From Candidatus Tayloriibacteriota bacterium (GTDB taxonomy: Bacteria > Patescibacteriota > Minisyncoccia > Phycocordibacterales > PALSA-1337), in the NCBI GenBank assembly GCA_903857825.1, contig CAIOGI010000001.1, positions 40,698 through 104,697 on the forward strand: 64,000 bases of DNA, written 5' to 3'. Made by a program: the position numbers and the translations under genes. The notes beneath the pieces are model-generated. The model had not been told where the DNA came from, did no database searches, and saw only the letters and a program-made list of their open reading frames with translations. Shown piece after piece: positions 1,978 to 56,730 of this stretch. The stretch's first letter is position 1, and each line of letters begins with the position of its first letter.

Positions 1978-4176
1978 TTATTCACTCTTCCTATGAAATT
2001 TTTTGTGGATTTTCTTTAATTCTGTATCAGTAACATGTGTATAAATCTGAGTTGTATTGATATTGGCATGGCCAAGAAGCATTTGCACTGAGCGCAGATC
2101 TGCACCATTTCTCAACAGGTCTGTCGCGAAGGAATTATGTGAAATAAAACCATCAGTAATAAAGTTTGAGTATTTATTAATGGTAAAATCAAATACCTCG
2201 GTTTTACCTTTAATATTTTCTATTTTTTTTATCTTTAACCACCGAATATGCGAATTCAGTTTAAGTAAATTCTCAAGTATATCAATCGATCCATCTTTTA
2301 AGCCATTTCCTCGCAAAACAGTTATGATTTTCATTAATAGATTAGCAGACAAACAGATATTTTTATATCTGGTTAGATTTTTTATATTACATTTATTTTG
2401 TATTTCATATACCAATCCCTTATTTTGCAACAATATTGGATATAATTTCCTTAGTATTTGCTGACATGGTATTTTTTCATCCTCAATAATTTCGGGATTT
2501 AATATCGTCTTTTGTTTAAGGGTTTGAATTAAAGACTTAAAGTTTCTCTGGTTTTTAAAGGTGGTTATATGAAGCACATAAATAGTATTGTCAATTATTT
2601 TTCCTTGTGGGAGCTTAACTTTTCTATCTCTTTTTAATAAAATAGAGTCAATATTAAGTATTAAAAATAAAGATTGAACATCTTTTAACAGGTCTTTGCT
2701 TGTTGAAAATACTTTTATAGTTCCATTATTGCCTTCCGCATCATAATATCCAGCAAGAAATGCGCTTATCTCTTCCTTGCTCGCCTTAAACAGACTCTCG
2801 GGAACACGCCTATATTTTGAGTATTGTGTAATACCAAGTTTTCTCAGTTTTCTTAATAACTTAACATCATAAATATATAAAGAATGTGATTTGCTTTCTT
2901 TATTTGGACCAATTATTGGCTTCCTACCAATTATTTTTTCTGCCAAATTTGCATAATATTGAATATGCTTTATGTCCTTATCATTGATAATAATTCCTCG
3001 CCTTCTTTCACTTAAGGTACCATCTCCTAAAATATATCCCGTCAACCTCCAAAAATCCTTGCCCTCACCATCTTTTTTGTTAAAAGAAAAATCTACATGT
3101 TTTATGCCTGCAACATAGTCTCCAACAGATAGATCCTGCATTTGTCTTTCAACAATCCCATTTGTATTTACTGTAAAAAATGTATGATATGGTGTAGCTA
3201 TAATTTCTCTGCCATCTGCCCACATGCTTGATAGATTCTCTGTCGAATGCTTTTTTTTGGCAATAACCTTACCTTTCATTATTTGGCCATTATTAAGGTC
3301 TAGACTCATTACCATGCTTTGCTTGGAATTATTCAATTTATTTGCAGAAAAAATCCCAGAGCTTGTAATAATCCTTGTGTCTGAGTGTAAGCAGTGGCGA
3401 ATAACGTGTGGCGTTACTTTCTTGGAAATACCACTATTTATGGCATACTGCTTGACTATTCTCTCAACTGTTCTTCTATCTAGTCTTAGCGAATCCTTTT
3501 TCTGAGCCATTTTCTCATTCTTCTTGCCTGTAATTTGCACAAAAAGTGCATCGTCCATATCATCTCTTTTATCTAAATATTTTTGTACAGCGTTTCTTGC
3601 ATCATCTGAAATAAATACCACACGAACCTTCTCACCCTTTCCTCTGACAGACATTTCATCTAATTTTAAGTTTATATCTCTAGGGAGGGCACATAACTCC
3701 GACACACGAAGACCTGTTGAAAAAAGTAGCTCTAGCATGGCTTTATCTCTCAAGCCCTTCAAATTGCTTGTGTCTGGGGCGTTAAGCAAACGAACAAGTT
3801 CTTCAATAGTTATCAGATCTAATGATCTTTCTGGTACTTTTGCTAGCTCTATTCTATCTGGAGATAGAGAAGTAATGCTCTGTCTAGCCAGATATTTGAG
3901 AAAGGCACGCAATGCTATCAAATAGTAGTTCTGTGTACGTTTCTTTAGGGTTGTTGGGGCCAGTCCTTTCTCATTTCTAGCCTCTTGTCTGTTAAGCCAA
4001 ATACGGAAATCGCGTACAACATTGTCAGTAATACCTTTTGGATCTTTTATCTTCGTATAATCTAAAAAACGGCTCAGGTAGCGATCATAATTACGCACAG
4101 TATTCAGGCTTCTACCTTTTTCTATTTCAGTATATTGAAGAAATTCGGTTTTTAGTGAAAAAAGATTTTGCGACAT
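1978..4176 (-). CDS. XerC/XerD-family tyrosine recombinase whose catalytic C-terminal domain is interrupted by a roughly 420-aa intein
   Basis: The N-extein has the typical Xer N-terminal region ([13 protein letters not shown]...) and [13 protein letters not shown] (the Arg I region). The sequence ...TPHVIRH is then split from [34 protein letters not shown], which carries the catalytic Tyr. Confidence 0.85.
2134..3393 (-). mobile_element. Intein (Cys1 ... His-Asn, with a +1 Ser) carrying a LAGLIDADG homing endonuclease, inserted directly after the catalytic RH of the recombinase
   Basis: It starts [13 protein letters not shown] and has block B TPYHT. Two LAGLIDADG-type motifs are present ([12 protein letters not shown] and [11 protein letters not shown]). 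It ends FISHN followed by S. Extein coordinates were worked out from residue counts. Confidence 0.8.
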
Positions 4177-4216
4177 GATTTAAGTATACAATGCCAATCT
4201 TTTTCACACCCCCTTG

Positions 4217-4246
4217 ACAAAAAACTAGGGTATGCTATGATATCAC
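4217..4246 (+). promoter_or_regulatory. Near-consensus sigma70-type promoter (TTGACA-N17-TATGAT) pointing towards rpsO
   Basis: Sequence ccTTGACAaaaaactagggtatgcTATGATat. Confidence 0.5.
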
Positions 4247-4460
4247 CAACGTGTCTGAGCTTACTGCTATTGTTTATACCTATTGGCAAGGTAGGCAATG
4301 GCAATCGAACACCGCACAAACAATGGCCCCACGTGCTAAATGCGAGAGCACAGGCCACAACAATGAAAGGGAATCGCCATGATCAGAGGCCCGCCCCAAC
4401 TAGTTCGCCCCGTATCCCAATTTCGCACAGCTATGTGGAAAGAAGAGGATGCGGGGCATT
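4247..4460 (+). ncRNA. Candidate structured non-coding RNA or a long structured rpsO leader. The segment is GC-rich and sits downstream of the consensus promoter. Its class is unassigned.
   Basis: About 210 nt, visibly GC-rich in an AT-rich genome. It has no RBS or plausible ORF. A complementary pair cgccccgtatcc / ggatgcggggc is present. A second promoter-like TTGCAA-N17-TAGTAT lies just upstream of rpsO. Confidence 0.3.
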
Positions 4461-4502
4461 TAATTTGCAAATTTTATACATTCATGCTAGTATATCCCAA
4501 TC

Positions 4503-4772
4503 ATGTTAACAACAAGACAGAAGACAAATATCATAAAAAACGTAGCAATACACGATAAAGATACTGGCTCTCCAGAGGTTCAAATTTCAATATTAACAAA
4601 GAGAATCGAAGAATTAGCTGGTCACTTGAAAAAGCATAAGAAAGACAATCACTCAAGACGAGGACTTCTAGCCATGGTAGCCGATAGACAGACTCACATG
4701 AACTATTTAAAGAAGAAGAGCACTAAGCGTTATAACAGTATCGCGAAGAAACTAGATATAAAGGCAAAGTAA
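4503..4772 (+). CDS. rpsO: 30S ribosomal protein S15
   Basis: GSPEVQISILTKRIEELAGHLKKHKKDNHSRRGLLAMV matches the S15 signature. Confidence 0.95.
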   Translation: MLTTRQKTNIIKNVAIHDKDTGSPEVQISILTKRIEELAGHLKKHKKDNHSRRGLLAMVADRQTHMNYLKKKSTKRYNSIAKKLDIKAK

Positions 4773-6778: not shown

Positions 6779-8002
6779 GTGAACAATGAAACTATAGCAA
6801 AAAACAACTCAAATCCATTCAAAAAAGGCTTTCTATCTCATTTCAGCCTTGATTTTGACTTGTTTAAAATACAGGATTCAGATATACAGAGATTAGATAA
6901 TAAACTAAATTCCTTCGAAAAGATATTTCTGGACCCAAATATAGAAAAGACCCTAATAAGCAAGAATGAGTTACTTGCCTCTTTTGCAATATCAAAAGCA
7001 GAAAATTCTCAGCTCACATTAGAAGAAGCGGAAGATATCTATAAATTTGTTATAGAAAATAAAGATTTTGATTTTATAAGTAAAAAAATATCAAGTGGTA
7101 AAAAACTAGAAAAAAAAGACTATGAAAAGTTAGAATTCTTTAATATTGCTAGCACCTTTAGAGCTTTAAATGCAAATCCTTTTATGATTCAAGAACTGGA
7201 TGATAAATTGATTAGGAAAATCCATTTTGATATAACAAAAGGGCTAGATATTTTTGCTAAATATCTACCAGAATTTACTCTATATAAATCAGGAAACTGG
7301 CGTGATAATAATGAAATTCGTGTTGGAAAATATACTCCATCAGATTTCAAAGATATTCCAAATTCTATTTCTGATCTTATTTCATGGTTTAAAGATAATC
7401 AGTCCATAACAAATGTAGCTATATTTCATACTGCTCTATATGCAATACACCCTTTCAACAATGGGAATAAAAGAGTTTGTAGAATAATTGAGCATATTTT
7501 ATTAAAAATAATAGGGCTTAATAAGAATAATCTTTATAGTAATTCGTATTTTTATCATAAAGAAAAAACTAGATATTACAAGTATCTTTTAAGTTCACTA
7601 GAGAGAAGGAATCTTAATATTTTCTCATCTTTTATACTAGAGTCTATCGTCTTCTCTATTTTGGGAGTGATCAAAACTAGTCTAGAAATAAAAAGGCAAC
7701 AATACATTGCCCAGTCTGAACTTGATAAGGCAGTACAAAAAGCAATTAAAGGGCTTATTAAAAGAAGGGAATTGCAATTTAAAAACTTCTATAAAATAGT
7801 TAAAAACCAAATTTCCAAGCAAACATTCGTAAATTATCTAGAAAAAGCAGTAAGTGCTGGAATTCTTATTAAAAGAGATGCAGGCAAAGCAACATATTAT
7901 AGGTTAAATATAGAAACGGATGAGGAAAAGTTATTAGCGGAGTTACTTGAGGATATAAAAGGGAAGGTTGGGGTTATAGATGAGGATTTGAGGTTGGTGT
8001 AG
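6779..8002 (+). CDS. Fic/Doc-family protein with a non-canonical Fic motif (HPFNNGNKRVCR) and a C-terminal winged-helix-like region. The track start is a GTG.
   Basis: The HPFxxGNxR core is present. It deviates from canonical HPFx(D/E)GNGRxxR by having N at the D/E position and K in place of the second G. Confidence 0.65.
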   Translation: MNNETIAKNNSNPFKKGFLSHFSLDFDLFKIQDSDIQRLDNKLNSFEKIFLDPNIEKTLISKNELLASFAISKAENSQLTLEEAEDIYKFVIENKDFDFISKKISSGKKLEKKDYEKLEFFNIASTFRALNANPFMIQELDDKLIRKIHFDITKGLDIFAKYLPEFTLYKSGNWRDNNEIRVGKYTPSDFKDIPNSISDLISWFKDNQSITNVAIFHTALYAIHPFNNGNKRVCRIIEHILLKIIGLNKNNLYSNSYFYHKEKTRYYKYLLSSLERRNLNIFSSFILESIVFSILGVIKTSLEIKRQQYIAQSELDKAVQKAIKGLIKRRELQFKNFYKIVKNQISKQTFVNYLEKAVSAGILIKRDAGKATYYRLNIETDEEKLLAELLEDIKGKVGVIDEDLRLV

Positions 8003-8022
8003 AAATGTGATGTAAAAGAAAA

Positions 8023-8040
8023 CCGTACATCTCTGTACGG
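8023..8040. terminator. Bidirectional hairpin (ccgtaca-tctc-tgtacgg) between convergent genes
   Basis: A perfect 7-bp stem with A- and T-rich flanks. Confidence 0.45.
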
Positions 8041-8085
8041 CCGTTGTGGGTAATGCCCCGCTGAAACATTACCTTGATTTGCGTG

Positions 8086-8616
8086 TTATTGTGCGGCACG
8101 CTTTGCTTCATCTAGGTGTTGCCTGAGTTGCCCAAGAAACCTTCTTGAGTTCACAGTGATACCTTGTTTTTCTTCCTCCTCAAATAGCTTGATAAATTTT
8201 GTCAGAATCTCAACCGCAATTTTTGCGTCAAGAAATTTCTGGCAAAACCACCAAGCCATGGTCGGTCTGTAGTAGGCGAGTTCACGTGCAGCCTGCTTAA
8301 GATCTTTCTCGTTCATCCGAAGCATTCTCGTCGTCTGAATTACCCCCTCACCATATCCGGCCTTAGCGTATTCGGTCCAAGCTGACTCCAACACAATTTT
8401 CCTGTGGATTCTGGATAGTCCCCTAACCAGACTGGTAACGCCTTGTGTATCCCAAGTTGCCTTATCGGTCTTTGGGTGAATGATGTAAGAAGGGAAGTTT
8501 GTGGTATTCATGTACTTTGTCTTTCTTTTCTGGTGTTCAATGGCACACCTACTTAAAGCCGTATTTTGTTGTAAAGAACTAACTCTATGAATCTGCGACA
8601 TCAGTCGTAGACTCAA
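8086..8616 (-). CDS. Hypothetical protein with visibly higher GC than its neighbours
   Basis: A long ORF with coherent codon usage. I recognise no motifs in it. Confidence 0.4.
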   Translation of the reverse strand: MSLRLMSQIHRVSSLQQNTALSRCAIEHQKRKTKYMNTTNFPSYIIHPKTDKATWDTQGVTSLVRGLSRIHRKIVLESAWTEYAKAGYGEGVIQTTRMLRMNEKDLKQAARELAYYRPTMAWWFCQKFLDAKIAVEILTKFIKLFEEEEKQGITVNSRRFLGQLRQHLDEAKRAAQ

Positions 8617-8695
8617 TGAAGTCGAGGATTTTCTTAGGATCCTCGATGTTGAAAGTTTTAGGCGTTAGCCACGGTTACTTCACCGAGTGGAGTTA

Positions 8696-9070
8696 CTACT
8701 GTGCCTTATGTACCTTAACCATTTGGATGATTAAATGCGCCACCTCCTTCAACGGGAAAGGGTGTTCGTACTTTCCCAAGAGCCGGTAAGTGCAGTAAGC
8801 ATCTATTGCCTTGTGGTCACTGGTAGTCACAAGTGTAATGTCTTTCGGGATAAGTCTTGCGACTTCCGCTCCTGAAAACATATGCATCTGATGATCCAGC
8901 AGGACGAGCTGGCAACCATTGATTTTCTTCAACACCTGATTAATTGATGTGTTCATGGAAACCACGATTGACACCGCCTCAAATCCCGCTACCTGCACAG
9001 CTTGGCTGAGGTCTTTTACGAAGTATTGGTCGTCATCAACCACCGCTATTTTTGTTGTTCTATTTTTCAT
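8696..9070 (-). CDS. Stand-alone response-regulator receiver (CheY-like REC) domain protein
   Basis: IAVVDDD, and LVLLDHQM with the phospho-acceptor Asp. It is about 124 aa and has no output domain. Confidence 0.7.
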   Translation of the reverse strand: MKNRTTKIAVVDDDQYFVKDLSQAVQVAGFEAVSIVVSMNTSINQVLKKINGCQLVLLDHQMHMFSGAEVARLIPKDITLVTTSDHKAIDAYCTYRLLGKYEHPFPLKEVAHLIIQMVKVHKAQ

Positions 9071-34797: not shown

Positions 34798-36090
34798 ATG
34801 CAAAAAGTATTTATAGCCAGCATATCAATAGTGATACTTATCCTTATCGGTGCAGGGGTGTATTGGTATGTGAACAAAGACATAGTCTCACAGTTACCAG
34901 CAACTACTGAGGGTGAAACAAGAGATCCTTTTGTTCCACTTAACAGAAATGGAATTACAGCAGAGAATCCAAACACCCCAACAAATCAGAATGAAAATAC
35001 TGAGCCCACAACACCATCGAACAACGCATCTTTTAAAATGCCCAAGCTTAGACAATTGAGCAACACGCCAGTAGCAGGAATGTATGCCAGCACAACAAAA
35101 ATAAGGGATTTAAATTTCTCAAGCACAACAATTGAAAAAACAATAGTTCGTTTTGTCGACAGGGGAACTGGGCACATATACGAAGCAAATGATAGTGATT
35201 TAAATATAGAAAAACTATCAAACACGACACTTCCAAAGATCTATGAGGCTTTTTGGAATAAAAACCTAACAGCAATGGTTGTGAGATATTTAAAGGACAA
35301 TACAGACATGATCACAAACTTTTATGCTGAAGTAAGGTCAAATCCAAACTCAACAGCATCTTCTACAACATCGTTCGAAGTTAAGGGTAAATATTTATCT
35401 CCAAATATTAACCAAGTAGCTGTATCTCCAGAAGGTAACAGAATATTTACATGGAATATTGAAAACGATAGCGGTGTTGGCTATTTATCATCTTTTGATG
35501 AAAAAGGTAAAACAAAAATAATAGATACTCCGCTAACCCAAATGAATATTGACTGGCCAGCAACATCTACAGTTACACTAACCACTCGCGGATCGGGTTT
35601 TTCTTTGGGATATATGTATGCAATAAACACAAAAAACGCCTCTACACGTAAACTATTTGGTGGAATTCGTGGTATATCTGCCAAAATGAGTAGGGATGGC
35701 AAGAATGTTATTTATTCTACTGGTGGAAACAATCTTACCTTAGGACTTTTCAATACAAACAAGTCTGAATTCACAGAAGTCATGTTCAATACGATCGCAG
35801 ACAAGTGTGTGTGGAGCTCAATCAGAACAAATGAAGCCTACTGCGCTGTTCCAAACGAAACACCTGCCGGAGTGTATCCCGATGATTGGTATAAGGGTAA
35901 AATCTTGTTTACAGATAAAATATGGCACCTAGACACAACGACAGGGGAAGTGCACTTATTGGCAAACCTTCTTGATCTTTCAAATAAACTGATTGACGCT
36001 ACTGAACTTGTACTTGATCCAAAAGAGAATTATTTATACTTTATAAACAAAAGGGATTTGACGCTTTGGGCACTAGATCTAAACCAGTAG
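34798..36090 (+). CDS. N-terminally anchored extracytoplasmic protein that is beta-rich. It is the last gene of the cluster.
   Basis: The transmembrane anchor ISIVILILIGAGVYWYV. Confidence 0.45.
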   Translation: MQKVFIASISIVILILIGAGVYWYVNKDIVSQLPATTEGETRDPFVPLNRNGITAENPNTPTNQNENTEPTTPSNNASFKMPKLRQLSNTPVAGMYASTTKIRDLNFSSTTIEKTIVRFVDRGTGHIYEANDSDLNIEKLSNTTLPKIYEAFWNKNLTAMVVRYLKDNTDMITNFYAEVRSNPNSTASSTTSFEVKGKYLSPNINQVAVSPEGNRIFTWNIENDSGVGYLSSFDEKGKTKIIDTPLTQMNIDWPATSTVTLTTRGSGFSLGYMYAINTKNASTRKLFGGIRGISAKMSRDGKNVIYSTGGNNLTLGLFNTNKSEFTEVMFNTIADKCVWSSIRTNEAYCAVPNETPAGVYPDDWYKGKILFTDKIWHLDTTTGEVHLLANLLDLSNKLIDATELVLDPKENYLYFINKRDLTLWALDLNQ

Positions 36091-36188
36091 TAAAATTGGA
36101 CTCGCTTGCTTGCGCTCGGGAGCACTTTATTTTTATACGCAAGCTAGTAAAAATAAAGTCTCCCTCACCGCGTCGAGTCCAATTTTAC
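36090..36188. repeat. Palindromic intergenic repeat element, copy B. It exactly fills the gap between convergent stop codons.
   Basis: Its termini gtaaaattggactcgcttgcttgcgctcgg ... cctcaccgcgtcgagtccaattttac are near-identical to copy A. Confidence 0.7.
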
Positions 36189-36926
36189 TTATAGTGGCTG
36201 ATGCTTCTTTAAATGCCTTCTAACTACTAGTTCCTGACCCAATGTGAACAAACTGCTTATAGCCCAATATAGAGCAACTACAGCTGATATTTTGTAGGAG
36301 ATTAGAAACACAATAACAGGAAAAACATATTTCATGTTTTTCATCATGTTTTGTGCCATATCCATTTGTGATGGTGGTCCCTTTGGTGCATTCGTATTTG
36401 GTTTTGGTGCTGTGGCTGAAAGAGAGTAGTGTAATTGGAAGAATTGAGCCGCTGCAGCAATTATCGATAATGGTATGCTTCTAACTCCAATATCCATAAT
36501 GCCCAAAAAATGCATATTTATAATGGGAGAAGAAACAAAGCTATATAAAAGAGCATCCTTTACTACTGGTAATCCTGAATTAATGAAAATTGAGTAAAGA
36601 GCATAAATAATTGGTAGTTGTATTATCAAAACAAGAAAACTAGAAAAAGGATTGACCCCCTTTTCCTTATACAAAGCCATAACCTTAACAGCTTGTTGTT
36701 GTTTGTCTGGAACTGTTTCTTTTAACCTGTTTAATTCTGGCTCTATTTCTTTCATCCTAACCTGCGTAACTATGGCTTTCTTTGAGAGAGGGAAGAGAAT
36801 GAGTCGAACAATTATTGTAAGAATAATCACAGCAATTCCAGCATCTGCCCAAGGAAAGACATCTATTAAATAGATTAACCCATTATAAAGAGGGTTAAAG
36901 ATAAAAGTGTTGTATATATAAGACAT
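36189..36926 (-). CDS. yidC: Membrane protein insertase YidC/Oxa1 (the short form)
   Basis: ...IVRLILFPLSKKAIVTQVRMKEIEPELNRLKE...KVMALYKEKGVNPFSSF.... Confidence 0.9.
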   Translation of the reverse strand: MSYIYNTFIFNPLYNGLIYLIDVFPWADAGIAVIILTIIVRLILFPLSKKAIVTQVRMKEIEPELNRLKETVPDKQQQAVKVMALYKEKGVNPFSSFLVLIIQLPIIYALYSIFINSGLPVVKDALLYSFVSSPIINMHFLGIMDIGVRSIPLSIIAAAAQFFQLHYSLSATAPKPNTNAPKGPPSQMDMAQNMMKNMKYVFPVIVFLISYKISAVVALYWAISSLFTLGQELVVRRHLKKHQPL

Positions 36927-40518: not shown

Positions 40519-43065
40519 CTACTGAACGATAGAGATCCTAACCGATGAAGATGTGCTGTTGAAAATAGAGTCGTAAGAGATAATTTTTATATCATTTACA
40601 CCAGGCTCAAAACCACCAATATCAGAAGGTGTGAAGTTGATGATGGAAGGATCTGTTTCCTTGGAAGAAATATATTTATCATTAATATATAGTTCAGACT
40701 TCTTTATTGGATATTTACCTGTAGATGTAATCTTGATTTCAACTTTAGAATTTAAATTTATGGCATCACCTTCTTTTGGGGAAATAATTGTAATTGAAGG
40801 CTGGTTTTCTGGCACATGAACATCATCGGTTTCTGTTGGAATTGTATAAGAAGGAGTTTCTTTGAACGATTGATTGTCTTTCTGCCAAATATCAAACCAT
40901 TTTCTAACACCGTACTCCCAATAGTCATACTGAGAATCTTTTTTTGGTTCTGCTGGAACAGGTCCTTGTGGATGATCTTTTTCTAACCAATTCAATATTG
41001 TATGAACGCTTGGAACTATAATTTCTTGACGTGTTTGAGTTGGGGTCATTTCTGTCGCTATTTTTTTTGATACAGAATCAATTGTATAAGAAATACCACC
41101 TTTCCAAATGCCTCTTAATACAGGCTTAATATCTTCTGGGGAAGGTTCTGGTTTTTTAAATGATTCTTTTTCTAATGAATCATTTATTTCTGCCATAAAA
41201 GCCCCCCACACAGGAGTAATAATAGTTCCAGCAACTTTTTTGTCCATCGGACTATTGTCGTTTTTTCCAGCCCAAGCACCCACGACAATATTTGGTGTAT
41301 ATCCTTCTATCCAAACATCTCGAAAGTCATTGGTTGTTCCTGTTTTTACTGCTACCTGACGATTTAAATTTGCAACAACAGATGTGACACTCTCCATTCT
41401 TACAGATGGATCTGAAAGAATATCCGAAATCTGCCTAGCTGATTGAGAGGGTATTGCTTGAACAGGTTCGATAGAAGACTCCTCCAATACATTTCCTAGA
41501 GAATCTTCGATTCTAAGTATTGATCTATATGGATTTCTAATTCCATCATTTGCAAATACACCATAAGCACTTGTAAGTTCTAGTAAAGACACCTCGCCAC
41601 CACCAAGAACGAGGGTCAAACCATAGCGTCCTGGGTCTTTTAGGCTAGTTATACCCATTGTCTCAGCAGTATCAATAGACTCTTTAATACCAACCAAATA
41701 AAGCGCCTTAACCGCAGGAATATTTCTAGAATGAGCAAGAGCCGTTCTTATTGTTTCAGGACCTTCAAAGATTCCATCGTAATTATCAGGAGAATAGCAA
41801 ACTTTTTCAATATCATCACTTGGATTTGTTGGTTTTCCTTCAACGGTACACTTTGTTGAAAATTCCGTCTTTACATCAAACAAAATAGTTTCAGGGGTGT
41901 AGCCTTTTGTGAAAGCTGTTGCATAAACAAAGGGTTTAAATGTTGACCCCGGTTGTCTGTATGCTGTTGTTATATTGAAATTTCCTTGAATCTTTTTATC
42001 AAAGTAGTTTCTAGAGCCAATCATTGTCAGGATATCACCATTTTTTGGGTTTATGGCGATCATTGCTGTATTACTTGCACTAAAAGTGGATTCTAGTGTT
42101 GGTGCGAAATTGGCAACAACTTTTTCAGCCTTTTCTTGCATTGTATAGTCAAGAGTTGTTATTACCTTCATGCCATTTTCCTCCACAGCGTCTTCGCCGA
42201 ATTTTTGTATCAAATAATCCTTAACATACAATGCAAAATGAGGGGCCCTCATACCTGTTGAACTTTTTTCTAGAAATATTACATTTTCATTTGTTGCTTG
42301 TTGATATTCTTCTTCGTTTATAAAACCATTTTCTAACATTTTCTGTAATACAAGACGCTGTCTAGCTTTCAAAGACTCTTTGTTTGGGCCATATGGAGAG
42401 TAGAATGTCGGTGCTTGAGGTATGGCACCCAAATATGCAGCTTCCGCAAGTGTTACATTTTCTGCTGATTTACCAAAAAAGGTTTTACTCGCTTCTTCTA
42501 CACCATAAACACTTCCACCATAAGGGGTTTCGTTTAGATAGGTACTAAGTATTTGGTCTTTCGATAATATTTTTTCGAGTTTAATTGCCAAGACCCACTC
42601 CTTTATTTTTCTTGTTATTGTTCTATCTTTTGTAAGTACGGAGTTTTTTATAACTTGTTGGGTTATGGTTGAACCGCCTTGTTTTGTTCCAGAACCAGGT
42701 GTTATGTTTGAAAGTACGGCTCGAACTATTGAAGATGGCTTTATTCCCATATGTTGATAAAACTCTGTATCCTCTATTGCGATGGCGGCATTTTTAATAT
42801 AAACAGAAATCTTATCAAATTCTATAACTGTTCTTTTTGCATCACTATGAATATCATAAAGAAGAACTTGACCAGTTCTATCAAATATCTTTGTGGACTG
42901 TACAACTTTTCTTGCCTCGAAGGCACTCAAGTCTGGTATTTGGAGGGATGTAAACCATATTATAGAACCACCAGCCAAAAGAAGGGATAGGGAAATAGAC
43001 AGCATCAATAATGCCTTTATTATCTTCCACTTAGTACTCTTGAAGAATGTTTTTCTTCTATGCAT
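40519..43065 (-). CDS. Penicillin-binding protein 1A (bifunctional GT51 glycosyltransferase/transpeptidase) with an extra C-terminal domain
   Basis: IAIEDTEFYQHMGI, GGSTITQQVIKN (GT51), and SGSTFKP and KTGTTND (transpeptidase). Confidence 0.9.
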   Translation of the reverse strand: MHRRKTFFKSTKWKIIKALLMLSISLSLLLAGGSIIWFTSLQIPDLSAFEARKVVQSTKIFDRTGQVLLYDIHSDAKRTVIEFDKISVYIKNAAIAIEDTEFYQHMGIKPSSIVRAVLSNITPGSGTKQGGSTITQQVIKNSVLTKDRTITRKIKEWVLAIKLEKILSKDQILSTYLNETPYGGSVYGVEEASKTFFGKSAENVTLAEAAYLGAIPQAPTFYSPYGPNKESLKARQRLVLQKMLENGFINEEEYQQATNENVIFLEKSSTGMRAPHFALYVKDYLIQKFGEDAVEENGMKVITTLDYTMQEKAEKVVANFAPTLESTFSASNTAMIAINPKNGDILTMIGSRNYFDKKIQGNFNITTAYRQPGSTFKPFVYATAFTKGYTPETILFDVKTEFSTKCTVEGKPTNPSDDIEKVCYSPDNYDGIFEGPETIRTALAHSRNIPAVKALYLVGIKESIDTAETMGITSLKDPGRYGLTLVLGGGEVSLLELTSAYGVFANDGIRNPYRSILRIEDSLGNVLEESSIEPVQAIPSQSARQISDILSDPSVRMESVTSVVANLNRQVAVKTGTTNDFRDVWIEGYTPNIVVGAWAGKNDNSPMDKKVAGTIITPVWGAFMAEINDSLEKESFKKPEPSPEDIKPVLRGIWKGGISYTIDSVSKKIATEMTPTQTRQEIIVPSVHTILNWLEKDHPQGPVPAEPKKDSQYDYWEYGVRKWFDIWQKDNQSFKETPSYTIPTETDDVHVPENQPSITIISPKEGDAINLNSKVEIKITSTGKYPIKKSELYINDKYISSKETDPSIINFTPSDIGGFEPGVNDIKIISYDSIFNSTSSSVRISIVQ

Positions 43066-49262: not shown

Positions 49263-50933
49263 TTAATCCTCAATCGATATAACTCTTTGCAACTCATCAA
49301 AAGATGTGATGCCTTGCAATATCTTTACTATACCATCCTGTGTGAGGGTTAGTATAGCCTGTGGGGCTGCGGCTTTTTCTACTTCATCTTCACTAGGATT
49401 ATTTTCTAGTGTAGCATTCACTTCTGGTGTCATGATTATGCCTTCGTATATACCTATTCTACCTTTGTATCCTGTATGATTACATTTCTCACACTCACCA
49501 GCTGTGAATATATTTGCTGGCATTGGTGGGATTTCGCTTTTATCAAAAATTGTTTCAACGACTTTGTCTATCTTGATCTTATTATCACCATCTATCGGAA
49601 TTGGTTTTTTACAGAATTCACACAGCTTTCTTATTAGACGTTGAGCAAGAACGATGTTTATAGCAGAACTCATGATTTTAGGATTAATACCAAGGTCTAT
49701 AAGGCGGGGGAATGCACCAGCGGCGCTATTTGTGTGCAGGGTAGAGAAGACAAGGTGGCCTGTTAAGGCAGAGTTAATAGCGATCGCAGCAGTTTCCCCG
49801 TCTCGGATTTCACCAACCATAATAATATCTGGGTCTTGTCTGAGTGCTGCTCTTAACCCATCAAGAAAAGTATAGCCTTTTTCATTTACCTGTGTCTGGA
49901 CTATGCCTTGCAGATGATATTCGATGGGGTCTTCAATTGTAATGATTTTTACGGTTGGGTTATGTGCCTTTTTCAAGAACGCATAAAGCGTTGTTGTCTT
50001 TCCTGAACCTGTTGGCCCTGTGGTTAGAAGCATTCCATTTGGCTTGTCGATCTCTTTTAGAATAATGGCAAGTAGCTTTGGAGGGATGCCAAGATTTTCT
50101 AGTGGCACTCCAATAGATTTAGGATTAAGTATACGCATAACGATTGATTCGTTATATGCACCTGGCAGAATAGATGTTCTTATTTCTATGTCTAAATCTT
50201 TTACATGAACACTGAATCTTCCATCTTGAGAATCAAGTTTGATGTTTAATTTTAATCCAGAAAGTAATTTTACACGAGATAGTAGTAGGGCATAAGTCTC
50301 CTTGTCGAAGTCGATCACTTGTACGAGTACACCGTCTAGTCTATATCTAAGCCTAATATATTCTTCTTCAGGTTCTATGTGAACATCAGATGCGTCCGTG
50401 GCGAGTGCTCCCGCAAGAATTGTTTCGAGTATTTTAGAAACCCTGTAGCTCCTATTCATTGAAAGTAAATCTTTTAGAATGGTCACTATTGCGGGTAGAC
50501 TTTTTGCCTTTTCGACAATATCACTAATTTCGTCGCTCGCCACTTCTAAAGAACCAGCCTTGCTCTCATAAGCAAAAGACATGTCTTTGTATGCATTCCA
50601 TGCTTTATTCAGGCTTGCTGTGGAACATATGTATAGTGTTGGTTCGTAACCCTTATTCTTCAAATCTACTAGGACTTCTTGTATTTTGCTATCCTCAGGA
50701 TTCCTTGTGGCTACTTTGATTTTTTTATCAACCAAAGCGAAACCTGCCATTTTTTTCTCTCTCGCAACTTTCTCCTCAATCAGTCTCAATGCATCACTGC
50801 TTATAGGAACAGCAGAAAGATCTACGTACTCTAATCCATATTTTGCGGATAACAGCTGAACAAGTTCTTCCTCCTCTCTCTTTAGAAGATCACTCATTTT
50901 TCTATTTTGCTTGTCTTCGTCAAATTGAATCAT
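49263..50933 (-). CDS. pilB: Type IV pilus assembly / type II secretion ATPase (PilB/GspE family)
   Basis: A GSPII_E N-domain. Walker A TGPTGSGKTTTL, the Asp box, the His box TLHTN, and a C-terminal Cys4 finger. Confidence 0.9.
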   Translation of the reverse strand: MIQFDEDKQNRKMSDLLKREEEELVQLLSAKYGLEYVDLSAVPISSDALRLIEEKVAREKKMAGFALVDKKIKVATRNPEDSKIQEVLVDLKNKGYEPTLYICSTASLNKAWNAYKDMSFAYESKAGSLEVASDEISDIVEKAKSLPAIVTILKDLLSMNRSYRVSKILETILAGALATDASDVHIEPEEEYIRLRYRLDGVLVQVIDFDKETYALLLSRVKLLSGLKLNIKLDSQDGRFSVHVKDLDIEIRTSILPGAYNESIVMRILNPKSIGVPLENLGIPPKLLAIILKEIDKPNGMLLTTGPTGSGKTTTLYAFLKKAHNPTVKIITIEDPIEYHLQGIVQTQVNEKGYTFLDGLRAALRQDPDIIMVGEIRDGETAAIAINSALTGHLVFSTLHTNSAAGAFPRLIDLGINPKIMSSAINIVLAQRLIRKLCEFCKKPIPIDGDNKIKIDKVVETIFDKSEIPPMPANIFTAGECEKCNHTGYKGRIGIYEGIIMTPEVNATLENNPSEDEVEKAAAPQAILTLTQDGIVKILQGITSFDELQRVISIED

Positions 50934-50997
50934 GTTTTTAATTTAAAAAAGTTAAATATTGTATTTATTATAGCGTATAAGGTAAATTTGACTGCTA

Positions 50998-51025
50998 TTG
51001 ACTTTACCGCTGACTGTGATATAAT
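50998..51025 (+). promoter_or_regulatory. Consensus promoter 1 (TTGACT-N16-TGaTATAAT, an extended -10), followed by leader hairpin agccagaa-ttgt-tctggct at 51036-51054
   Basis: It is near-identical to the promoter and leader at 51511-51570. Confidence 0.6.
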
Positions 51026-51072
51026 ACTACCGTAAAGCCAGAATTGTTCTGGCTCGGTTACGGAATGATCAT

Positions 51073-51399
51073 ATGAAAAAGAAAGTGTTTCTTCTGGTGG
51101 CGTGTGCCACCTTAGCCTACGCCCCAGCTCATGCTGGGGGGACACCGCCAAAGCAGGCGACCCTCCCAGTGGTCGCTACAGCGACGAACCCACCTCACAC
51201 TTTAGTGTTGGGAAGAGTGGTGGGATCTACGGAGATCCGACTGTTTGTCCCCATTCACACCCACCGGTGGACAAACAACCCAACCCCAACGCCGACGACC
51301 AACCAGTGGTCATCGGCGGGGTCTAAGACTCCAGCCACAAACGGTGTGGCTAAACAAAACTCTGGGGCAATCGCCCCCGGAAAGGTGGACGGCAAATAG
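51073..51399 (+). CDS. High-GC small secreted protein or lipoprotein, Thr/Pro/Asn-rich, 108 aa
   Basis: The signal peptide is MKKKVFLLVACATLAYAPAHA, with a possible LVAC lipobox. Its GC is much higher than the flanking DNA. It has a promoter, an RBS-like ggaa and a terminator. Confidence 0.5.
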   Translation: MKKKVFLLVACATLAYAPAHAGGTPPKQATLPVVATATNPPHTLVLGRVVGSTEIRLFVPIHTHRWTNNPTPTPTTNQWSSAGSKTPATNGVAKQNSGAIAPGKVDGK

Positions 51400-51417
51400 C
51401 TAAGACCACCCCACCAA

Positions 51418-51458
51418 GCGGCTCGAATCTCACAGGAGAGGCGAGCCGTTATTTTTTA
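51418..51458 (+). terminator. Rho-independent terminator (gcggctcg...cgagccg followed by TTATTTTTT)
   Basis: A GC stem followed by a T-run. Confidence 0.6.
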
Positions 51459-51510
51459 TATTTTCGATTAGGTAGTAATTGATTAGCAGGTTTAATATCT
51501 TTTAATACTA

Positions 51511-51538
51511 TTGACTTTGTGTCTAGATGTGATATAAT
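51511..51538 (+). promoter_or_regulatory. Consensus promoter 2 (TTGACT-N16-TGaTATAAT), followed by leader hairpin gctggaa-tatgttgt-tccagc at 51550-51570
   Basis: A paralogue of promoter/leader 1. Confidence 0.6.
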
Positions 51539-51592
51539 ACTAGTGTGAAGCTGGAATATGTTGTTCCAGCCAGATGACGGAAAGTTCTTCCT

Positions 51593-52003
51593 ATGAAAAA
51601 CATTCTTCTGTTGGCGACAGTGTTGGCTCTGATGGCGTTCACCTGCACTGGGTGTGCGGGTATCTTTTCAAAGTCTACGAAGCCGTTGTCCCGCCAGGTC
51701 ACCGAGCCAATGTCTGGCTCGAAGATGCCGGTGGAAAAGTTCCACTCGGTGTCAGTGAGTGGGCCTGGTTTCGGGTACTCCAAAGTCGAAGAGACTAGGG
51801 GGTATCCGGTCCAGGTCGTCAGTCGTGACCATAACGGCGCCCTTGTGTACACCAACGAGGTGTACATCTACTCCCAGACCAACGTCTGGGGATACCGGTA
51901 CAACACCGACAGGGTGCCCCAGACATACACCGCACCAGTGCCTTACAAGAGCACGGTGTACGGACCCCAGGGTCCGAGAGGAAGGAAAGCCTCCCCGCGC
52001 TGA
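51593..52003 (+). CDS. High-GC small secreted protein, Tyr/Gly/Val/Thr-rich, 136 aa
   Basis: The signal peptide is MKNILLLATVLALMAFTCTGCAG. It is GC-rich with strong GC3 bias. Overlapping ORFs in other frames are the expected high-GC artefacts. Confidence 0.5.
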   Translation: MKNILLLATVLALMAFTCTGCAGIFSKSTKPLSRQVTEPMSGSKMPVEKFHSVSVSGPGFGYSKVEETRGYPVQVVSRDHNGALVYTNEVYIYSQTNVWGYRYNTDRVPQTYTAPVPYKSTVYGPQGPRGRKASPR

Positions 52004-52023
52004 AAAAGCGCAAAACAGTTTCG

Positions 52024-52070
52024 CAGCCGGCTCCTTCTTGTCACACGACGAGATACGAGCCGGTTTTCTA
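52024..52070 (+). terminator. Rho-independent terminator (gccggctc...gagccgg followed by TTTT)
   Basis: A GC stem followed by a T-run. Confidence 0.55.
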
Positions 52071-52110
52071 TTATATTTTTATAATCGTCCTATTGTGTTA
52101 TATTTTAATA

Positions 52111-52551
52111 ATGAAAATCACAGTCACCACTCACTCTCTAGAAGAAGCTCAAAAGCTTGCGAAAGATTGGCTAGCCTCTTTACCTCAAAAAACTGACGAG
52201 GCGACTATTGTGGGATTGTATGGAAATCTCGGATCTGGGAAAACTACTTTTACACAATCCGTTGCTAGAGAGCTTGGCATAAATAGTGCGGTAACTAGTC
52301 CGACATTCGTAATAGAGAAACTTTACGAGACCACGCACCCGTATTTTGCCAGACTTATACATATAGACGCATATAGACTAGAAAGTGGAAGGGAATTGCA
52401 AACTTTAAACTTCGAGGATTTGGTAGATAATCCAAATAATTTGATCTTGATAGAGTGGCCAGAGAATGTAAAAGAGATTTTACCTGAAAATCATTTGAAA
52501 ATACTTTGCGAATTTGTCGATGAGAATTCTAGGAAATTTGAAATTCTTTAA
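52111..52551 (+). CDS. tsaE: tRNA threonylcarbamoyladenosine biosynthesis protein TsaE (YjeE). The likely start is MKITVTT, and the track ORF begins at a TTG at 52093.
   Basis: GLYGNLGSGKTTFTQ (the P-loop) and TSPTFVIE. Confidence 0.85.
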   Translation: MKITVTTHSLEEAQKLAKDWLASLPQKTDEATIVGLYGNLGSGKTTFTQSVARELGINSAVTSPTFVIEKLYETTHPYFARLIHIDAYRLESGRELQTLNFEDLVDNPNNLILIEWPENVKEILPENHLKILCEFVDENSRKFEIL

Positions 52552-52814
52552 GAATAAAGATTACTATGACTATCTATTTTATAAAAAGTATAGACGCCTT
52601 TTGGACTTTCTTTATAAATTAACCTCAAATCTGAGTTTACATTGATACTTCTAAAATCTTTTAGTTCACCATGTAGAGGGTGATTGTTTAATATTTGATC
52701 AAATGGATTAACAATAAAAATATCCCTCCTTGCCTTAAAAGATCCCTTCTGTTTATTATCTAGTTTTTTATACTGTTTTTCAAAACTTTTGTGTAAGTAT
52801 ATTTTCACAAACAC
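52548..52814 (-). CDS. RelE/ParE-family type II toxin (mRNA interferase)
   Basis: About 88 aa, with ...KARRDIFIVNP... and ...LRLIYKE... typical of the RelE/YoeB fold. It overlaps the antitoxin by 4 nt. Confidence 0.65.
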   Translation of the reverse strand: MFVKIYLHKSFEKQYKKLDNKQKGSFKARRDIFIVNPFDQILNNHPLHGELKDFRSINVNSDLRLIYKESPKGVYTFYKIDSHSNLYS

Positions 52815-52817
52815 ATT

Positions 52818-53087
52818 TTATATTGAATCTAGATAGTCGTCCATTTTTTTGCTATCAGAAAAAGAAGGGGACAGGTTCTTGCTCTTTTTAACGTCCATTT
52901 CAGCCTTTTTTAATTCACTTGTGGTTTTTGTATTAGGATAATATTCAAATTCAATCTTCTTCTCCCTTATCAATTTTCTCATAGAGGCATTTACAAAACT
53001 GCTAATATTAAAACCCATATCCTCAAGAATCTTTTGCGCCTCATCCTTTATTTTTTTGTCTGTTCTTATGTGTATCAGTGTATTCAT
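52818..53087 (-). CDS. RelB/DinJ-family antitoxin (ribbon-helix-helix). The likely start is MNTLIHIRTD, and the track ORF extends to 53180.
   Basis: IRTDKKIKDEAQKILEDMGFNISSFVNASMRKLIREKKIEF resembles DinJ. Confidence 0.6.
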   Translation of the reverse strand: MNTLIHIRTDKKIKDEAQKILEDMGFNISSFVNASMRKLIREKKIEFEYYPNTKTTSELKKAEMDVKKSKNLSPSFSDSKKMDDYLDSI

Positions 53088-53165
53088 AGTATACATAGTA
53101 TATACAATGTATACTATTTTGCAAGTACGGTGTATCTCGTCATATATTTGAGGTACAATAGGGGT

Positions 53166-53939
53166 ATGAAAGAGGAACAATCATTAGTTAATTATGAAAG
53201 AGGAGGTTTCAGGACCGATTTGTCTAAAAGAATTCTCGAGCCAGAGGAGATTATTACTGGTGAAGAGGGAGAAAAATATGCCAATCGAAAAGATGACAGA
53301 ACCCTGACTTATAGCATGGTCGCTAGGGATATTGTAGAAAGACTTGGTATGAATGAAAGATCTAGGGTCATGGAGGTTTGCTGTGGGTCAGGTCAATTAG
53401 CCCATTTTCTTAGAGAAATGACTGGTGCGTATATTGTTGCAACAGATGGAGGAAAAGAATTGGTGGACGCCGCCACCTCAAAGTATGGCGGTGAGGGTAT
53501 AGAATTCCGACAGCTTGATGTTCATGGTGCTACAGATGGCGATTTTGATTTTGTAATATGTAAAGACTCATTCCATCATTTTACTGACCCAGTACAATCG
53601 ATAAAAGATATGTTTCGCCTGTTAAAAGACGGCGGAAAGATTTACATTTTTGATTTAGTCAGAAGTTGTGATCCAGAACAAATAGATTATCGTCAAAAGG
53701 TGATGCAGATAGATGCTGAGGCAAAAAGGTTTTTGCAATCAGTTAACGCTTCATTAACTCCAGAAGAAATGAAGAGCGTGGCAATTGGGAGTGCAGTAAT
53801 AGATGTGGAGGTGATTTATCCGATGCAGTATTCAGAGGATAATATAGAGGAGCATAAAGAAATAATAGAGAGAGACTCAACCAAAGAGTACTTACTAGAC
53901 AAACTCTTTGCCGTGTACATCCTGACAAAAAAAATATGA
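53166..53939 (+). CDS. Class I SAM-dependent methyltransferase. The likely start is MKEEQSL, and the track ORF begins at 53034.
   Basis: VMEVCCGSGQLAHFL (motif I) and FDFVICKDSFHHF. Confidence 0.7.
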   Translation: MKEEQSLVNYERGGFRTDLSKRILEPEEIITGEEGEKYANRKDDRTLTYSMVARDIVERLGMNERSRVMEVCCGSGQLAHFLREMTGAYIVATDGGKELVDAATSKYGGEGIEFRQLDVHGATDGDFDFVICKDSFHHFTDPVQSIKDMFRLLKDGGKIYIFDLVRSCDPEQIDYRQKVMQIDAEAKRFLQSVNASLTPEEMKSVAIGSAVIDVEVIYPMQYSEDNIEEHKEIIERDSTKEYLLDKLFAVYILTKKI

Positions 53940-56305: not shown

Positions 56306-56387
56306 GATTGGGGCATTGACAAAACTCAGCGAAGTGGTAGTTTGGGGTTAGTTAGTGTCGGTTAACCCTTAATCGGAGAAAATCCAA

Positions 56388-56633
56388 ATGACGACGTTTA
56401 ATGATGCGGCGGCGGCGGCCTTTGTTAGGCAGGTCGGACAAGGGGTAAAAGGGCGTATGCCTCAAGAAATGCCGAATGTTCCAAGTGGAATGGCTGTTGT
56501 GGTGCTCTTGGGCGACACCATGTATTGCCTCGAAGATCCCAAAGACTACGACGTAGTCAAAGAAATGTTCGGCAACAGTGTCACAGCCGAACTCTTTGCC
56601 GTCGATTGGTCGCACTTTAATCAGGCGACCTGA
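56388..56633 (+). CDS. Small GC-rich hypothetical protein (81 aa, no signal peptide)
   Basis: There is a GGAG RBS 7 nt upstream of the ATG. The segment is GC-rich (ggcggcggcggcc...). A terminator follows. Confidence 0.35.
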   Translation: MTTFNDAAAAAFVRQVGQGVKGRMPQEMPNVPSGMAVVVLLGDTMYCLEDPKDYDVVKEMFGNSVTAELFAVDWSHFNQAT

Positions 56634-56667
56634 ATATCATCACCCCCCCCACTATGCAGTCACCTCA

Positions 56668-56700
56668 GACCGGTCCACACAAGACGCCGGTCTTCTTTTT
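56668..56700 (+). terminator. Rho-independent terminator (agaccgg...ccggtct followed by TTTTTAT)
   Basis: A stem followed by a T-run. Confidence 0.55.
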
Positions 56701-56730
56701 ATATTTTCCTTTTTATCCTATACTAAACCC

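Follow-up and report, generated by a model that had tools for sequence, protein, structure and literature searches.

The window, by which we mean the whole 64-kb (64,000 nucleotide, nt) stretch of contig CAIOGI010000001.1 that was analysed, comes from a member of the Patescibacteria (candidate phyla radiation, CPR) closest to Candidatus Taylorbacteria and the Paceibacteria. Between its pilB-like gene and tsaE lie two adjacent islands of high guanine-plus-cytosine (GC) content, each holding one small open reading frame (ORF), hereafter ORF1 and ORF2. The best reading, to which we attach a probability of roughly 60%, is that these islands are strongly transcribed single-gene units encoding fast-evolving surface (lipo)proteins, the mRNAs of which are selected for a generic, probably stabilising structure. 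The evidence comes from the anatomy of the units, their synteny in relatives, selection on the proteins, a shift in synonymous codons and an excess of mRNA folding that is biased to the sense strand.

Anatomy and composition of the two units

Predicted transcription and translation signals delimit two autonomous, single-gene units, each running from promoter to terminator:

50996..51029, + strand: promoter 1; -35 TTGACT at 50998-51003, 16-nt spacer, extended -10 TGaTATAAT at 51017-51025; divergent from the pilB start
51036..51054, + strand: leader hairpin 1; AGCCAGAA-TTG-TTCTGGCT, a perfect stem of 8 base pairs (bp)
51073..51399, + strand: ORF1; 108 amino acids (aa), predicted signal peptide, T/P/A-rich mature part
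51417..51459, + strand: intrinsic terminator 1; stem (GC)GGCTCG...CGAGCC(GT), then TATTTTTTAT; paralogous to terminator 2
51509..51542, + strand: promoter 2; matches promoter 1 at each of the 25 specified positions; -35 at 51511-51516, -10 at 51533-51538
51550..51570, + strand: leader hairpin 2; GCTGGAA-TATGTTG-TTCCAGC, 7 bp; then ACGGAAAG 8 nt before the ORF2 ATG
51593..52003, + strand: ORF2; 136 aa, lipoprotein-type signal peptide, Y/G/V/P/T-rich mature part
52025..52080, + strand: intrinsic terminator 2; stem CCGGCTC...GAGCCGG, inner hairpin, then TTTTCTATTATATTTTT

This anatomy is present far beyond what chance would produce. The 34-nt pattern TATTGACTTT-N9-TGTGATATAATACTA was found exactly twice, at 50996 and 51509, where no occurrence was expected by chance, and the same two promoters are the only perfect TTGAC-N14-TGnTATAAT sites in the 64 kb; both match 11 of the 12 consensus positions and have the extended -10 TG. 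When the bare promoter pattern was scanned in metagenomes, the matches listed were unrelated gut and rumen contigs, none of them with the leader module. Each hairpin begins around 2-6 nt past the expected transcription start, as placed from the -10 ends at 51025 and 51538. Past hairpin 1, and 7 nt short of the ORF1 ATG, lies ACGGAA, which is likely to bind the ribosome, and an ACGGAA(A)G element lies 7-8 nt upstream of the ATG in both units. The two hairpins align with two compensatory pair changes, and the leader of the closest relative, L007, aligns with them too; it is only in this short 5' hairpin, as found in the two window leaders and L007, that compensatory changes were seen. The two terminators have in common the arm CGAGCC(G)GTT and a T-run.

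The paralogy of the flanks is also evident from their alignment. The upstream regions gave a Smith-Waterman score of 47, against 15.9 +/- 2.4 in shuffles, and the downstream regions one of 29, against 12.8 +/- 2.1; none of 500 shuffles reached the native score in either case. The coding bodies of ORF1 and ORF2, by contrast, have no detectable similarity in either DNA, where 41 of 500 shuffles reached the score, or protein. Hence an expression module, spanning around -70 to +60 and including the terminator, is present twice in this genome with unrelated bodies. The contrast between species is of the same kind: the promoter is kept, whilst the bodies are beyond recognition by BLAST even at 85% PilB identity. 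Conserved flanks and diverged bodies, both within and between species, point to a tandem duplication followed by the rapid divergence usual in the family, with the regulatory flanks strongly constrained. This is the simplest account of the origin of the two units; replacement of one body by recombination, or the origin of ORF1 de novo, might also have given rise to the pattern.

The islands stand out clearly within the window, the GC content of which is 35.7% overall and 35.7 +/- 5.0% when averaged over 300-nt segments. A GC content above 50% is attained only at 51001-51500, 51551-52100 and a weaker spot at 56351-56700, with the profile peaking at 0.61. The two islands are 57-58% GC, with values of 57.5% for ORF1 and 56.9% for ORF2. 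Their GC contents at third codon positions (GC3), 0.61 and 0.74, rank second and first, respectively, among the 58 window ORFs of at least 90 aa, for which the mean is 0.31 and the standard deviation 0.09. An earlier note on this DNA had estimated about 60% GC against a background of 33%, which slightly overstates the islands and understates the background but is in essence right; the computed GC is indeed elevated. It had also described duplicated, native-like promoter, leader and terminator modules around bodies that are compositionally deviant and unrelated to each other; both descriptions are borne out, the similarity of promoters and leaders persisting on alignment.

Relatives of the units between pilB and tsaE

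Both cassettes sit inside the interval between two conserved neighbours:

49263..50933, - strand: pilB-like gene for a type IV pilus/type II secretion system E (T2SS-E) assembly ATPase, conserved left neighbour, outside the cassettes (Pfam MshEN and T2SSE on the identical protein)
52111..52551, + strand: tsaE, conserved right neighbour (Pfam TsaE on the identical protein; directly past the island in relatives by tblastn)

Relatives were represented by 80 syntenic loci, fetched via the conserved PilB-type ATPase from species-representative genomes. In around 40 of them, with PilB identities ranging from 86% to about 52%, an island of 400-900 nt and 50-65% GC, against a background of 33-47%, lies between pilB and tsaE. 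The promoter with which these islands begin lies at a distance of 40-100 nt from the start of pilB; it is strikingly conserved as (C/G)TATTGAC(T/A)...TG(A/G)TATAAT and was the only part of the cassettes to align with the 80 loci by blastn. Each island contains one long forward ORF of around 100-260 aa; nearly all of these open with a signal peptide, which in most cases has a lipobox (..TGC, SGC, VGC, NGC), and their mature parts are rich in Y/G/S/T/P/R. An intrinsic terminator precedes tsaE in 29 of 35 by a strict filter, and was seen by eye in the remainder. Most genomes have a single unit; two were found in this window and in L057. At the finest scale, contigs L001-L006 belong to the same strain and share at least 99.9% identity across the 1177-nt locus; the arrangement is identical in all six of these metagenome contigs, and no usable polymorphism was present among them.

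The proteins themselves are difficult to link to any others. In a search of 5.8 billion proteins, ORF1 and ORF2 each matched only their own 99-100% identical copy from the same strain, and an exhaustive phmmer/HMMER search of 1.84 billion representatives with ORF1 returned nothing credible. BLASTP clustering linked neither ORF to any relative, and the comparison of ORF1 with the single gene of L007 gave E = 21. More sensitive was a profile hidden Markov model built from the main 16-member cluster of the family, against which ORF2 scored 31.8 bits (E 7e-9 in a small search set), a score reached by one of 300 shuffles of its mature part with the signal peptide kept. The profile features the motifs S-x-LP-x-x-PVR, Y-x-x-S-x-G-[ST] and [YF]-TN...S-[YF], and the ORF2 segment DHNGALVYTNEVYIYSQTNVWGYRYN aligns with DG..SYTN....YSYTNSYRYN of L036 and L059. 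On this profile match and its position, ORF2 is a divergent member of an uncharacterised, pilB-tsaE-linked lipoprotein family of the Paceibacteria/Taylorbacteria. ORF1 scored 1.7 bits, equal to its own shuffles, and is not a member by sequence. A search with a profile of the family alignment retrieved only 17 'hypothetical' proteins, mostly from one subfamily.

One candidate homologue of ORF1, the database entry P0019, was rejected: a weak 28-bit match had been counted nine times on a tandem repeat. P0019 is a 675-aa predicted protein of around ten near-perfect 62-aa repeats, probably a translated 186-bp satellite, and serves as a caution about repeat-inflated scores in that library.

The orthologues are divided by the length of their leaders. 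In L010, L012, L013, L014, L016, L018, L021, L036 and L071 the ATG lies 6-12 nt past the -10, and the mRNAs are probably leaderless, judging from this spacing; in the other orthologues, and in both window copies, a leader of around 50 nt carries a hairpin and a GGAAAG element. Translation would thus be initiated in two ways within one orthologous family, with the leader hairpin as one variant solution.

Since around 40 low-GC relatives carry a GC-enriched island at the same syntenic position, the GC-rich composition is an inherited family trait, old and vertical in the lineage. This bears directly on the proposal of the earlier note that the cassettes had captured their ORF bodies from a high-GC host or neighbour, for instance an actinobacterium. 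Acquisition of the bodies and their placement in a native cassette would be in keeping with the atypical composition and codon usage of the two genes, in which GC3 is several standard deviations above the window mean and 25 of 25 Val codons end in G or C, against 28% genome-wide, and with the presence of mutually unrelated bodies between paralogous flanks. We nevertheless consider it extremely improbable: the Actinobacteria-like best matches that the earlier note expected were not found, neither database search revealing a homologue in any other organism; the GC island is at the same locus across the full range of PilB identity and is not patchy; ORF2 matches the profile of a vertically inherited family; the atypical composition is common to the orthologues, so it is not diagnostic of transfer; and plain donor composition does not predict the sense-biased excess folding described below. 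The locus corrects a tempting misreading, as GC-rich islands with deviant codons in an AT-rich episymbiont are easily taken to be host-derived.

Signal peptides and coding status

ORF1 starts with MKKK-VFLLVACATLAY-APAHA|GG, giving the signal peptide MKKKVFLLVACATLAYAPAHA|GG, and ORF2 with MKN-ILLLATVLALMAF-TCTGC, which is of the lipoprotein type (...FTCTG-C21); the two signal peptides differ from each other. That both ORFs begin with signal peptides, as the earlier note had stated, was upheld by a simple n/h/c signal-peptide heuristic, which both pass, as do 1 and 12, respectively, of the 20,000 longest shuffled ORFs. The lipobox at the end of a signal peptide follows the pattern [LVI][ASTVI][GAS]-C. 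In ORF2 it reads C-T-G-C21, with Cys instead of L/V/I at position -3, and G20-C21 align with the invariant lipobox G-C of the relatives (LVTGC, LGTGC, LASGC, VGVGC); the protein may be lipidated. In ORF1 a lipobox at L-V-A-C11 would leave an h-region of only six residues, hence the signal peptidase I site AHA|GG is more likely.

Structured non-coding RNAs (ncRNAs) are classically recognised in AT-rich genomes as GC-rich islands equipped with a strong promoter and a terminator of their own, and the islands here might therefore be ncRNA genes in which the ORFs are accidental. Each has the promoter, terminator and GC content of such a gene, and ORF1, an orphan, adds no comparative support for coding. 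The orthologues of the family, though, diverge as protein-coding genes do. Seven orthologous pairs could be aligned by codon, and their differences concentrate at third positions (e.g. 30/16/62 over the three codon positions between L013 and L014). The ratio of nonsynonymous to synonymous divergence (dN/dS) of the island gene is 0.13-0.23 in five of the seven, and rises to 0.46 and 0.71 only in the remaining two, which are the most diverged and align poorly; that of pilB in the same genome pairs is 0.01-0.05. Signal peptides and lipoboxes are moreover maintained in around 40 genomes. Considering length, an ORF of at least 108 aa arose in 0.6% of dinucleotide shuffles of the ORF1 transcript, whilst a chance ORF both equally long and signal-peptide-like was found in 1 of 20,000 shuffles for ORF1 and in none of 20,000 for ORF2. 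ORF2 is almost certainly coding; ORF1 is very likely to be so, on the basis of its length, signal peptide and module context.

The island proteins have a dN around 5-13 times that of pilB, hence the family evolves very fast, yet clearly under purifying selection. The description of these genes as 'diversifying' in the earlier note is thus apt with regard to their rate of change, and not with regard to the mode of selection.

Source of the GC excess

At the codon usage normal for the window, the same proteins would be encoded at 46.4% (ORF1) and 41.8% (ORF2) GC. The amino acid composition therefore adds 0.106 and 0.060 to the GC fraction of ORF1 and ORF2, respectively, and synonymous codon choice adds 0.114 and 0.153, such that half or more of the GC excess is attributable to synonymous codons ending in G or C. 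Four-fold degenerate sites show an increase in G, from 0.10-0.16 to 0.37, and in C, from 0.15-0.17 to 0.23-0.32; in the pooled relatives, G at these sites rises from 0.09 to 0.29. Translational selection was considered as a cause of the high GC3, and typically gives a preference for C over U. It was rejected, because G rises more than C at the four-fold sites and because rpsO, the sole ribosomal protein gene in the window, has an ordinary GC3 of 0.38. A synonymous shift towards G and C, with the shifted sites placed to pair with one another, is the expected product of selection for RNA structure in an AT-rich genome.

Two other regions of the window are unusual in composition. The third GC-rich spot (56306-56720, 51-53% GC) lies between the polA stop codon (56305) and a holA-like gene starting near 56732. 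An 81-aa ORF within it, at 56388-56633, lacks a signal peptide and is preceded, at a distance of 8 nt, by GGAG; the spot also has a weak promoter-like TTGACA site at 56317 and, at 56669-56700, a terminator with the stem GACCGG..CCGGTC and a T-run. In the relative L022, holA directly follows polA and this insert is missing. The next-highest GC3 values in the window, 0.46 and 0.54, belong to the ORFs at 8086-8601 and 8696-9070 on the - strand, the latter resembling a response-regulator receiver; the region 8001-9070 had moderately negative folding z-scores, -3.0 to -3.6, in a rough scan.

Excess folding of the mRNA

Relative to dinucleotide shuffles, the whole transcripts of units 1 and 2 have folding z-scores of -8.8 and -10.3. 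The coding regions contribute to this in their own right: on dinucleotide shuffling, the z-scores are -5.0 for ORF1 and -6.5 for ORF2, and when synonymous codons were permuted, keeping the protein sequence and the codon counts fixed, they are -4.0 and -4.6, the native sequence being better than every permutation. Seven control segments, from tsaE, pilB, polA and a methyltransferase gene, gave z-scores between -1.8 and +1.2. Perfect local hairpins, defined as stems of at least 5 bp with loops of 3-8 nt, number nine in the transcript of unit 1 and seven in that of unit 2, against expectations of 2.1 +/- 1.4 and 2.6 +/- 1.5. In a scan of the window with 12 shuffles for each segment, from which the z-scores are rough, the four 250-nt segments of the locus were all within the seven most structured of 256.

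The relatives, for which 24-30 shuffles were used in each case, exhibit the same excess. Synonymous permutation of their island genes gives a median z-score of -3.05, and 19 of 24 genes reach -2 or lower, the extreme being -9.7 in L036, whereas an in-frame pilB segment in the same 24 genomes has a median of +0.05 and does not reach -2 in any of them (Mann-Whitney p = 8.6e-8). In 21 of 25 genes, folding is stronger for the sense strand than for the reverse complement (Wilcoxon p = 2e-4); as such a bias is expected from G-U pairs in the transcript, the effect is in the RNA, rather than in palindromes of the DNA. General GC-richness was rejected as the cause of the low z-scores, since the third GC-rich spot (56330-56720) is folded no more than expected (z -0.2 on the sense strand, -1.4 on the antisense) and GC-rich segments of pilB have z-scores above 0.

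The individual base pairs are not conserved. Between 3% and 31% of minimum free energy (MFE) pairs are common to the members of the orthologous pairs L013/L014, L012/L016, L008/L009 and L041/L045. Hence the conserved property is a bulk density of stable local hairpins, with no defined fold. This is also where the ncRNA explanation meets its second difficulty. The extreme z-scores of the transcripts are what it would predict, but the base pairs are unconserved and compensatory changes rare between close orthologues; this lack of a conserved specific structure rules out a classical ncRNA. Searches of Rfam with the window and 13 relatives at the gathering threshold, and with the locus at E<=10, returned tRNAs and noise only, leaving the islands without a match. 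Taken with the evidence for coding, this makes ncRNA genes with accidental ORFs very improbable, and the locus offers a caution for ncRNA screens that use GC content and folding z-scores.

Two readings of the diffuse folding are left, namely diffuse selection for folding or a mutational process that repeatedly creates palindromes. In the second, the hairpins and the GC excess would be a functionless by-product, for example of template-switch 'quasi-palindrome correction' or of biased repair at a heavily transcribed locus, that also drives the turnover of the sequence. The many perfect short palindromes would fit such a process, as would hairpins that turn over without compensatory substitution, and the extremely fast divergence beside a conserved promoter. 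However, the sense-strand bias, with its G-U contribution, points to RNA and not DNA, the trait persists in 19 of 24 lineages whose proteins are under purifying selection, and no mechanism is known by which such a process could stay restricted to a single gene for so long. We judge this explanation unlikely, if still to be reckoned with.

Three other outliers emerged from the folding scan. The segment 58990-59270 on the - strand (z -6.4) comprises tRNA-Lys(UUU) followed by three perfect terminator-like hairpins; 36001-36250 spans convergent gene ends (36090, 36189) and is probably a bidirectional terminator; and 41001-41250 has a z-score of -4.8.

Comparison with known systems

Like lpp, the gene for Braun's lipoprotein in Escherichia coli and the nearest analogue in function, each of these units is small, monocistronic and predicted to encode an exported (lipo)protein from a strong, constitutive-looking promoter, with a hairpin as terminator. 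Expression of lpp is constitutive, with an mRNA half-life of around 10-11.5 min and around 750,000 proteins per cell (PMC5924895, PMC10260701), and its 5' untranslated region is weakly structured (PMC5924895). The window units differ in having a stable hairpin near the 5' end, and there is no sequence relationship with Lpp (no Pfam match), which is conserved, whereas the pilB-tsaE family is very fast-evolving. The lpp mRNA sequence, as determined by Nakamura and colleagues in 1980, reportedly contains multiple stable stem-loops.

Stem-loops at the 5' terminus are described as stabilising the ompA and papA mRNAs of E. coli and the aprE mRNA of Bacillus subtilis against 5'-end-dependent decay (PMC3997798). 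The leaders of the window units resemble these in placing a stable hairpin a few nucleotides from the expected 5' end, followed by a ribosome-binding site, and a role of the leader hairpin as a stability element would fit the evidence. They differ in that around a third of the orthologues look leaderless and in that the structure runs through the whole coding region. Structure within coding regions lengthens the functional half-life of mRNA in mammalian cells (PMC6883848).

A tandem pair of small lipoprotein-type genes with similar 5' regions and divergent mature parts, in a host-associated bacterium of reduced genome, is also reminiscent of the vlp, vsa and vsp families of Mycoplasma. In these, the conserved block includes the signal peptide, and switching occurs via homopolymer tracts in the promoter or site-specific inversion. 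The signal peptides of the window units differ, and there are only two copies, with one in most relatives. No homopolymer tract is present in the 16-nt promoter spacers, ACCGCTGAC and GTGTCTAGA; no inverted repeats flanking the promoters were seen in the sequence, and no recombinase gene is adjacent to the locus. A phase-variable family of the vlp/vsa type was accordingly rejected, as no switching device was found and the arrangement is identical in 6/6 metagenome contigs. The GC-rich ncRNA genes of AT-rich genomes, a class revealed by screening GC content and intergenic regions, are similar to the units in having their own promoter and terminator and a very negative folding z-score, and dissimilar in that the units have conserved, selected ORFs, no conserved pairs or covariation, and no Rfam match.

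Proposed explanation

In the explanation we favour, each unit consists of a near-consensus sigma-70 extended -10 promoter, a 5' hairpin, a ribosome-binding element, a small exported-protein ORF and an intrinsic terminator. ORF2 would be this genome's copy of a lipoprotein family held between pilB and tsaE throughout the diversification of the lineage, and ORF1 would encode an additional secreted protein, an orphan, from a tandemly duplicated expression module. The GC content derives partly from the P/T/A/G/V/R-rich mature proteins, and at least equally from synonymous codons shifted to G and C, whose arrangement gives the sense mRNA many more local hairpins, and stronger ones, than chance would. 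The mRNA, strongly and constitutively transcribed, and folded into a stem-loop at its 5' terminus, densely along its coding region and into a hairpin at its terminator, would then be long-lived and resistant to nucleases, so that a small surface (lipo)protein is made in large amounts. That protein would be free to change fast, plausibly because it faces hosts, phages or the environment; its signal peptide, its rate of change and its pilus ATPase neighbour suggest that it may be a surface component exposed to hosts or phages.

Several observations weigh against this explanation. The level of transcription and the half-life of the mRNA are read from other properties: 'highly expressed' and 'stable' derive solely from promoter quality and predicted folding. 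The leader hairpin is not universal, since around a third of the orthologues, those with 6-12 nt between the -10 and the ATG, are without it, and excess folding is absent from 5 of 24 orthologues. The island genes have no lower synonymous divergence than pilB (dS of 1.07 vs 0.96 and 0.85 vs 0.82), which would also fit the mutational by-product described above. Between L013 and L014, at 76% DNA identity, 44 of around 144 MFE pairs are common, and 54 L013 pairs have changed in L014, of which 37 are broken and 2 are compensatory, with both sides changed; given such poor conservation of base pairs, selection, if real, acts on a diffuse property. The coding region of lpp is weakly structured in the same test (z -1.6/-1.2, vs -4 to -10 here), so the CPR genes are more extreme than the textbook case. 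For ORF1, an orphan, coding status is drawn from length, signal peptide and context. As for the proteins, no credible match for ORF1, ORF2 or family representatives was found in Pfam, NCBIfam, PADLOC or a PDB profile search, and the AlphaFold2 model of ORF2 with the family-profile alignment was poor apart from a long beta-hairpin, with a predicted local distance difference test score (pLDDT) of 54 and a predicted template modelling score (pTM) of 0.25.

The transcripts could have a dual function, encoding an exported protein whilst also acting as an abundant structured RNA: a decoy or sponge for a ribonuclease or an mRNA-interferase toxin, such as the nearby one of YafQ/RelE type, a scaffold, or a regulatory RNA. 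The structure of the sense strand goes past the needs of coding and is a conserved trait, both promoters are very strong, and a YafQ-family toxin gene lies two genes downstream. The specific structures and sequences are unconserved, only the promoter aligning by blastn, which argues against a specific RNA partner. We think a dual function markedly improbable. A more speculative possibility, which is decidedly unlikely, is that the hyper-folded state of the mRNA has long been kept, by selection or by a mutational mechanism specific to the locus, whilst the hairpins and the protein turn over, and that the transcript has a second role as RNA. If so, it might be an abundant RNA resistant to nucleases or toxins, a decoy, or the substrate of a hairpin-templated diversification by which new variants of the surface protein arise behind a fixed expression module; such a process would also have produced the unrelated ORF1 body in the duplicated module, a body that might even be a coding sequence of de novo origin.

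The units identify an uncharacterised family of exported lipoproteins, conserved in position and divergent in sequence, beside the type IV pilus ATPase in Paceibacteria/Taylorbacteria. As the family promoter is probably the strongest in its neighbourhood, the protein is a candidate for a major surface component in a group whose cell-surface biology is almost unknown. The family is also an unusually clean natural case of excess mRNA structure in a coding region being kept across species, against the genomic codon bias, with a bearing on mRNA stability and the tuning of expression in bacteria that have minimal regulatory and RNA-decay machinery.

Other features of the window

Immediately downstream of tsaE, and two genes from the hyper-folded mRNAs, is a YafQ/RelE-type toxin gene (88 aa; Pfam YafQ_toxin on the identical L002 protein) with a likely antitoxin ORF, at 52548-53180 on the - strand. 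At 1978-4176, also on the - strand, a 732-aa tyrosine recombinase has XerC/D-like ends and an apparent insert of around 400 aa, running from 'CLHSDTRII...' to '...GFISHNS', that resembles, as judged by eye, an intein with a LAGLIDADG-type homing endonuclease.

Upstream of rpsO (4503-4772), which encodes ribosomal protein S15, the region 4177-4502 contains a near-consensus promoter, TTGACA...TGCTATGAT, at 4214-4241. The leader that follows is around 260 nt long and around 46% GC. It folds moderately better than expected (z -2.9) and matches no Rfam family at E<=1; an S15 autoregulatory leader is one possibility, and a so far undescribed ncRNA is another.

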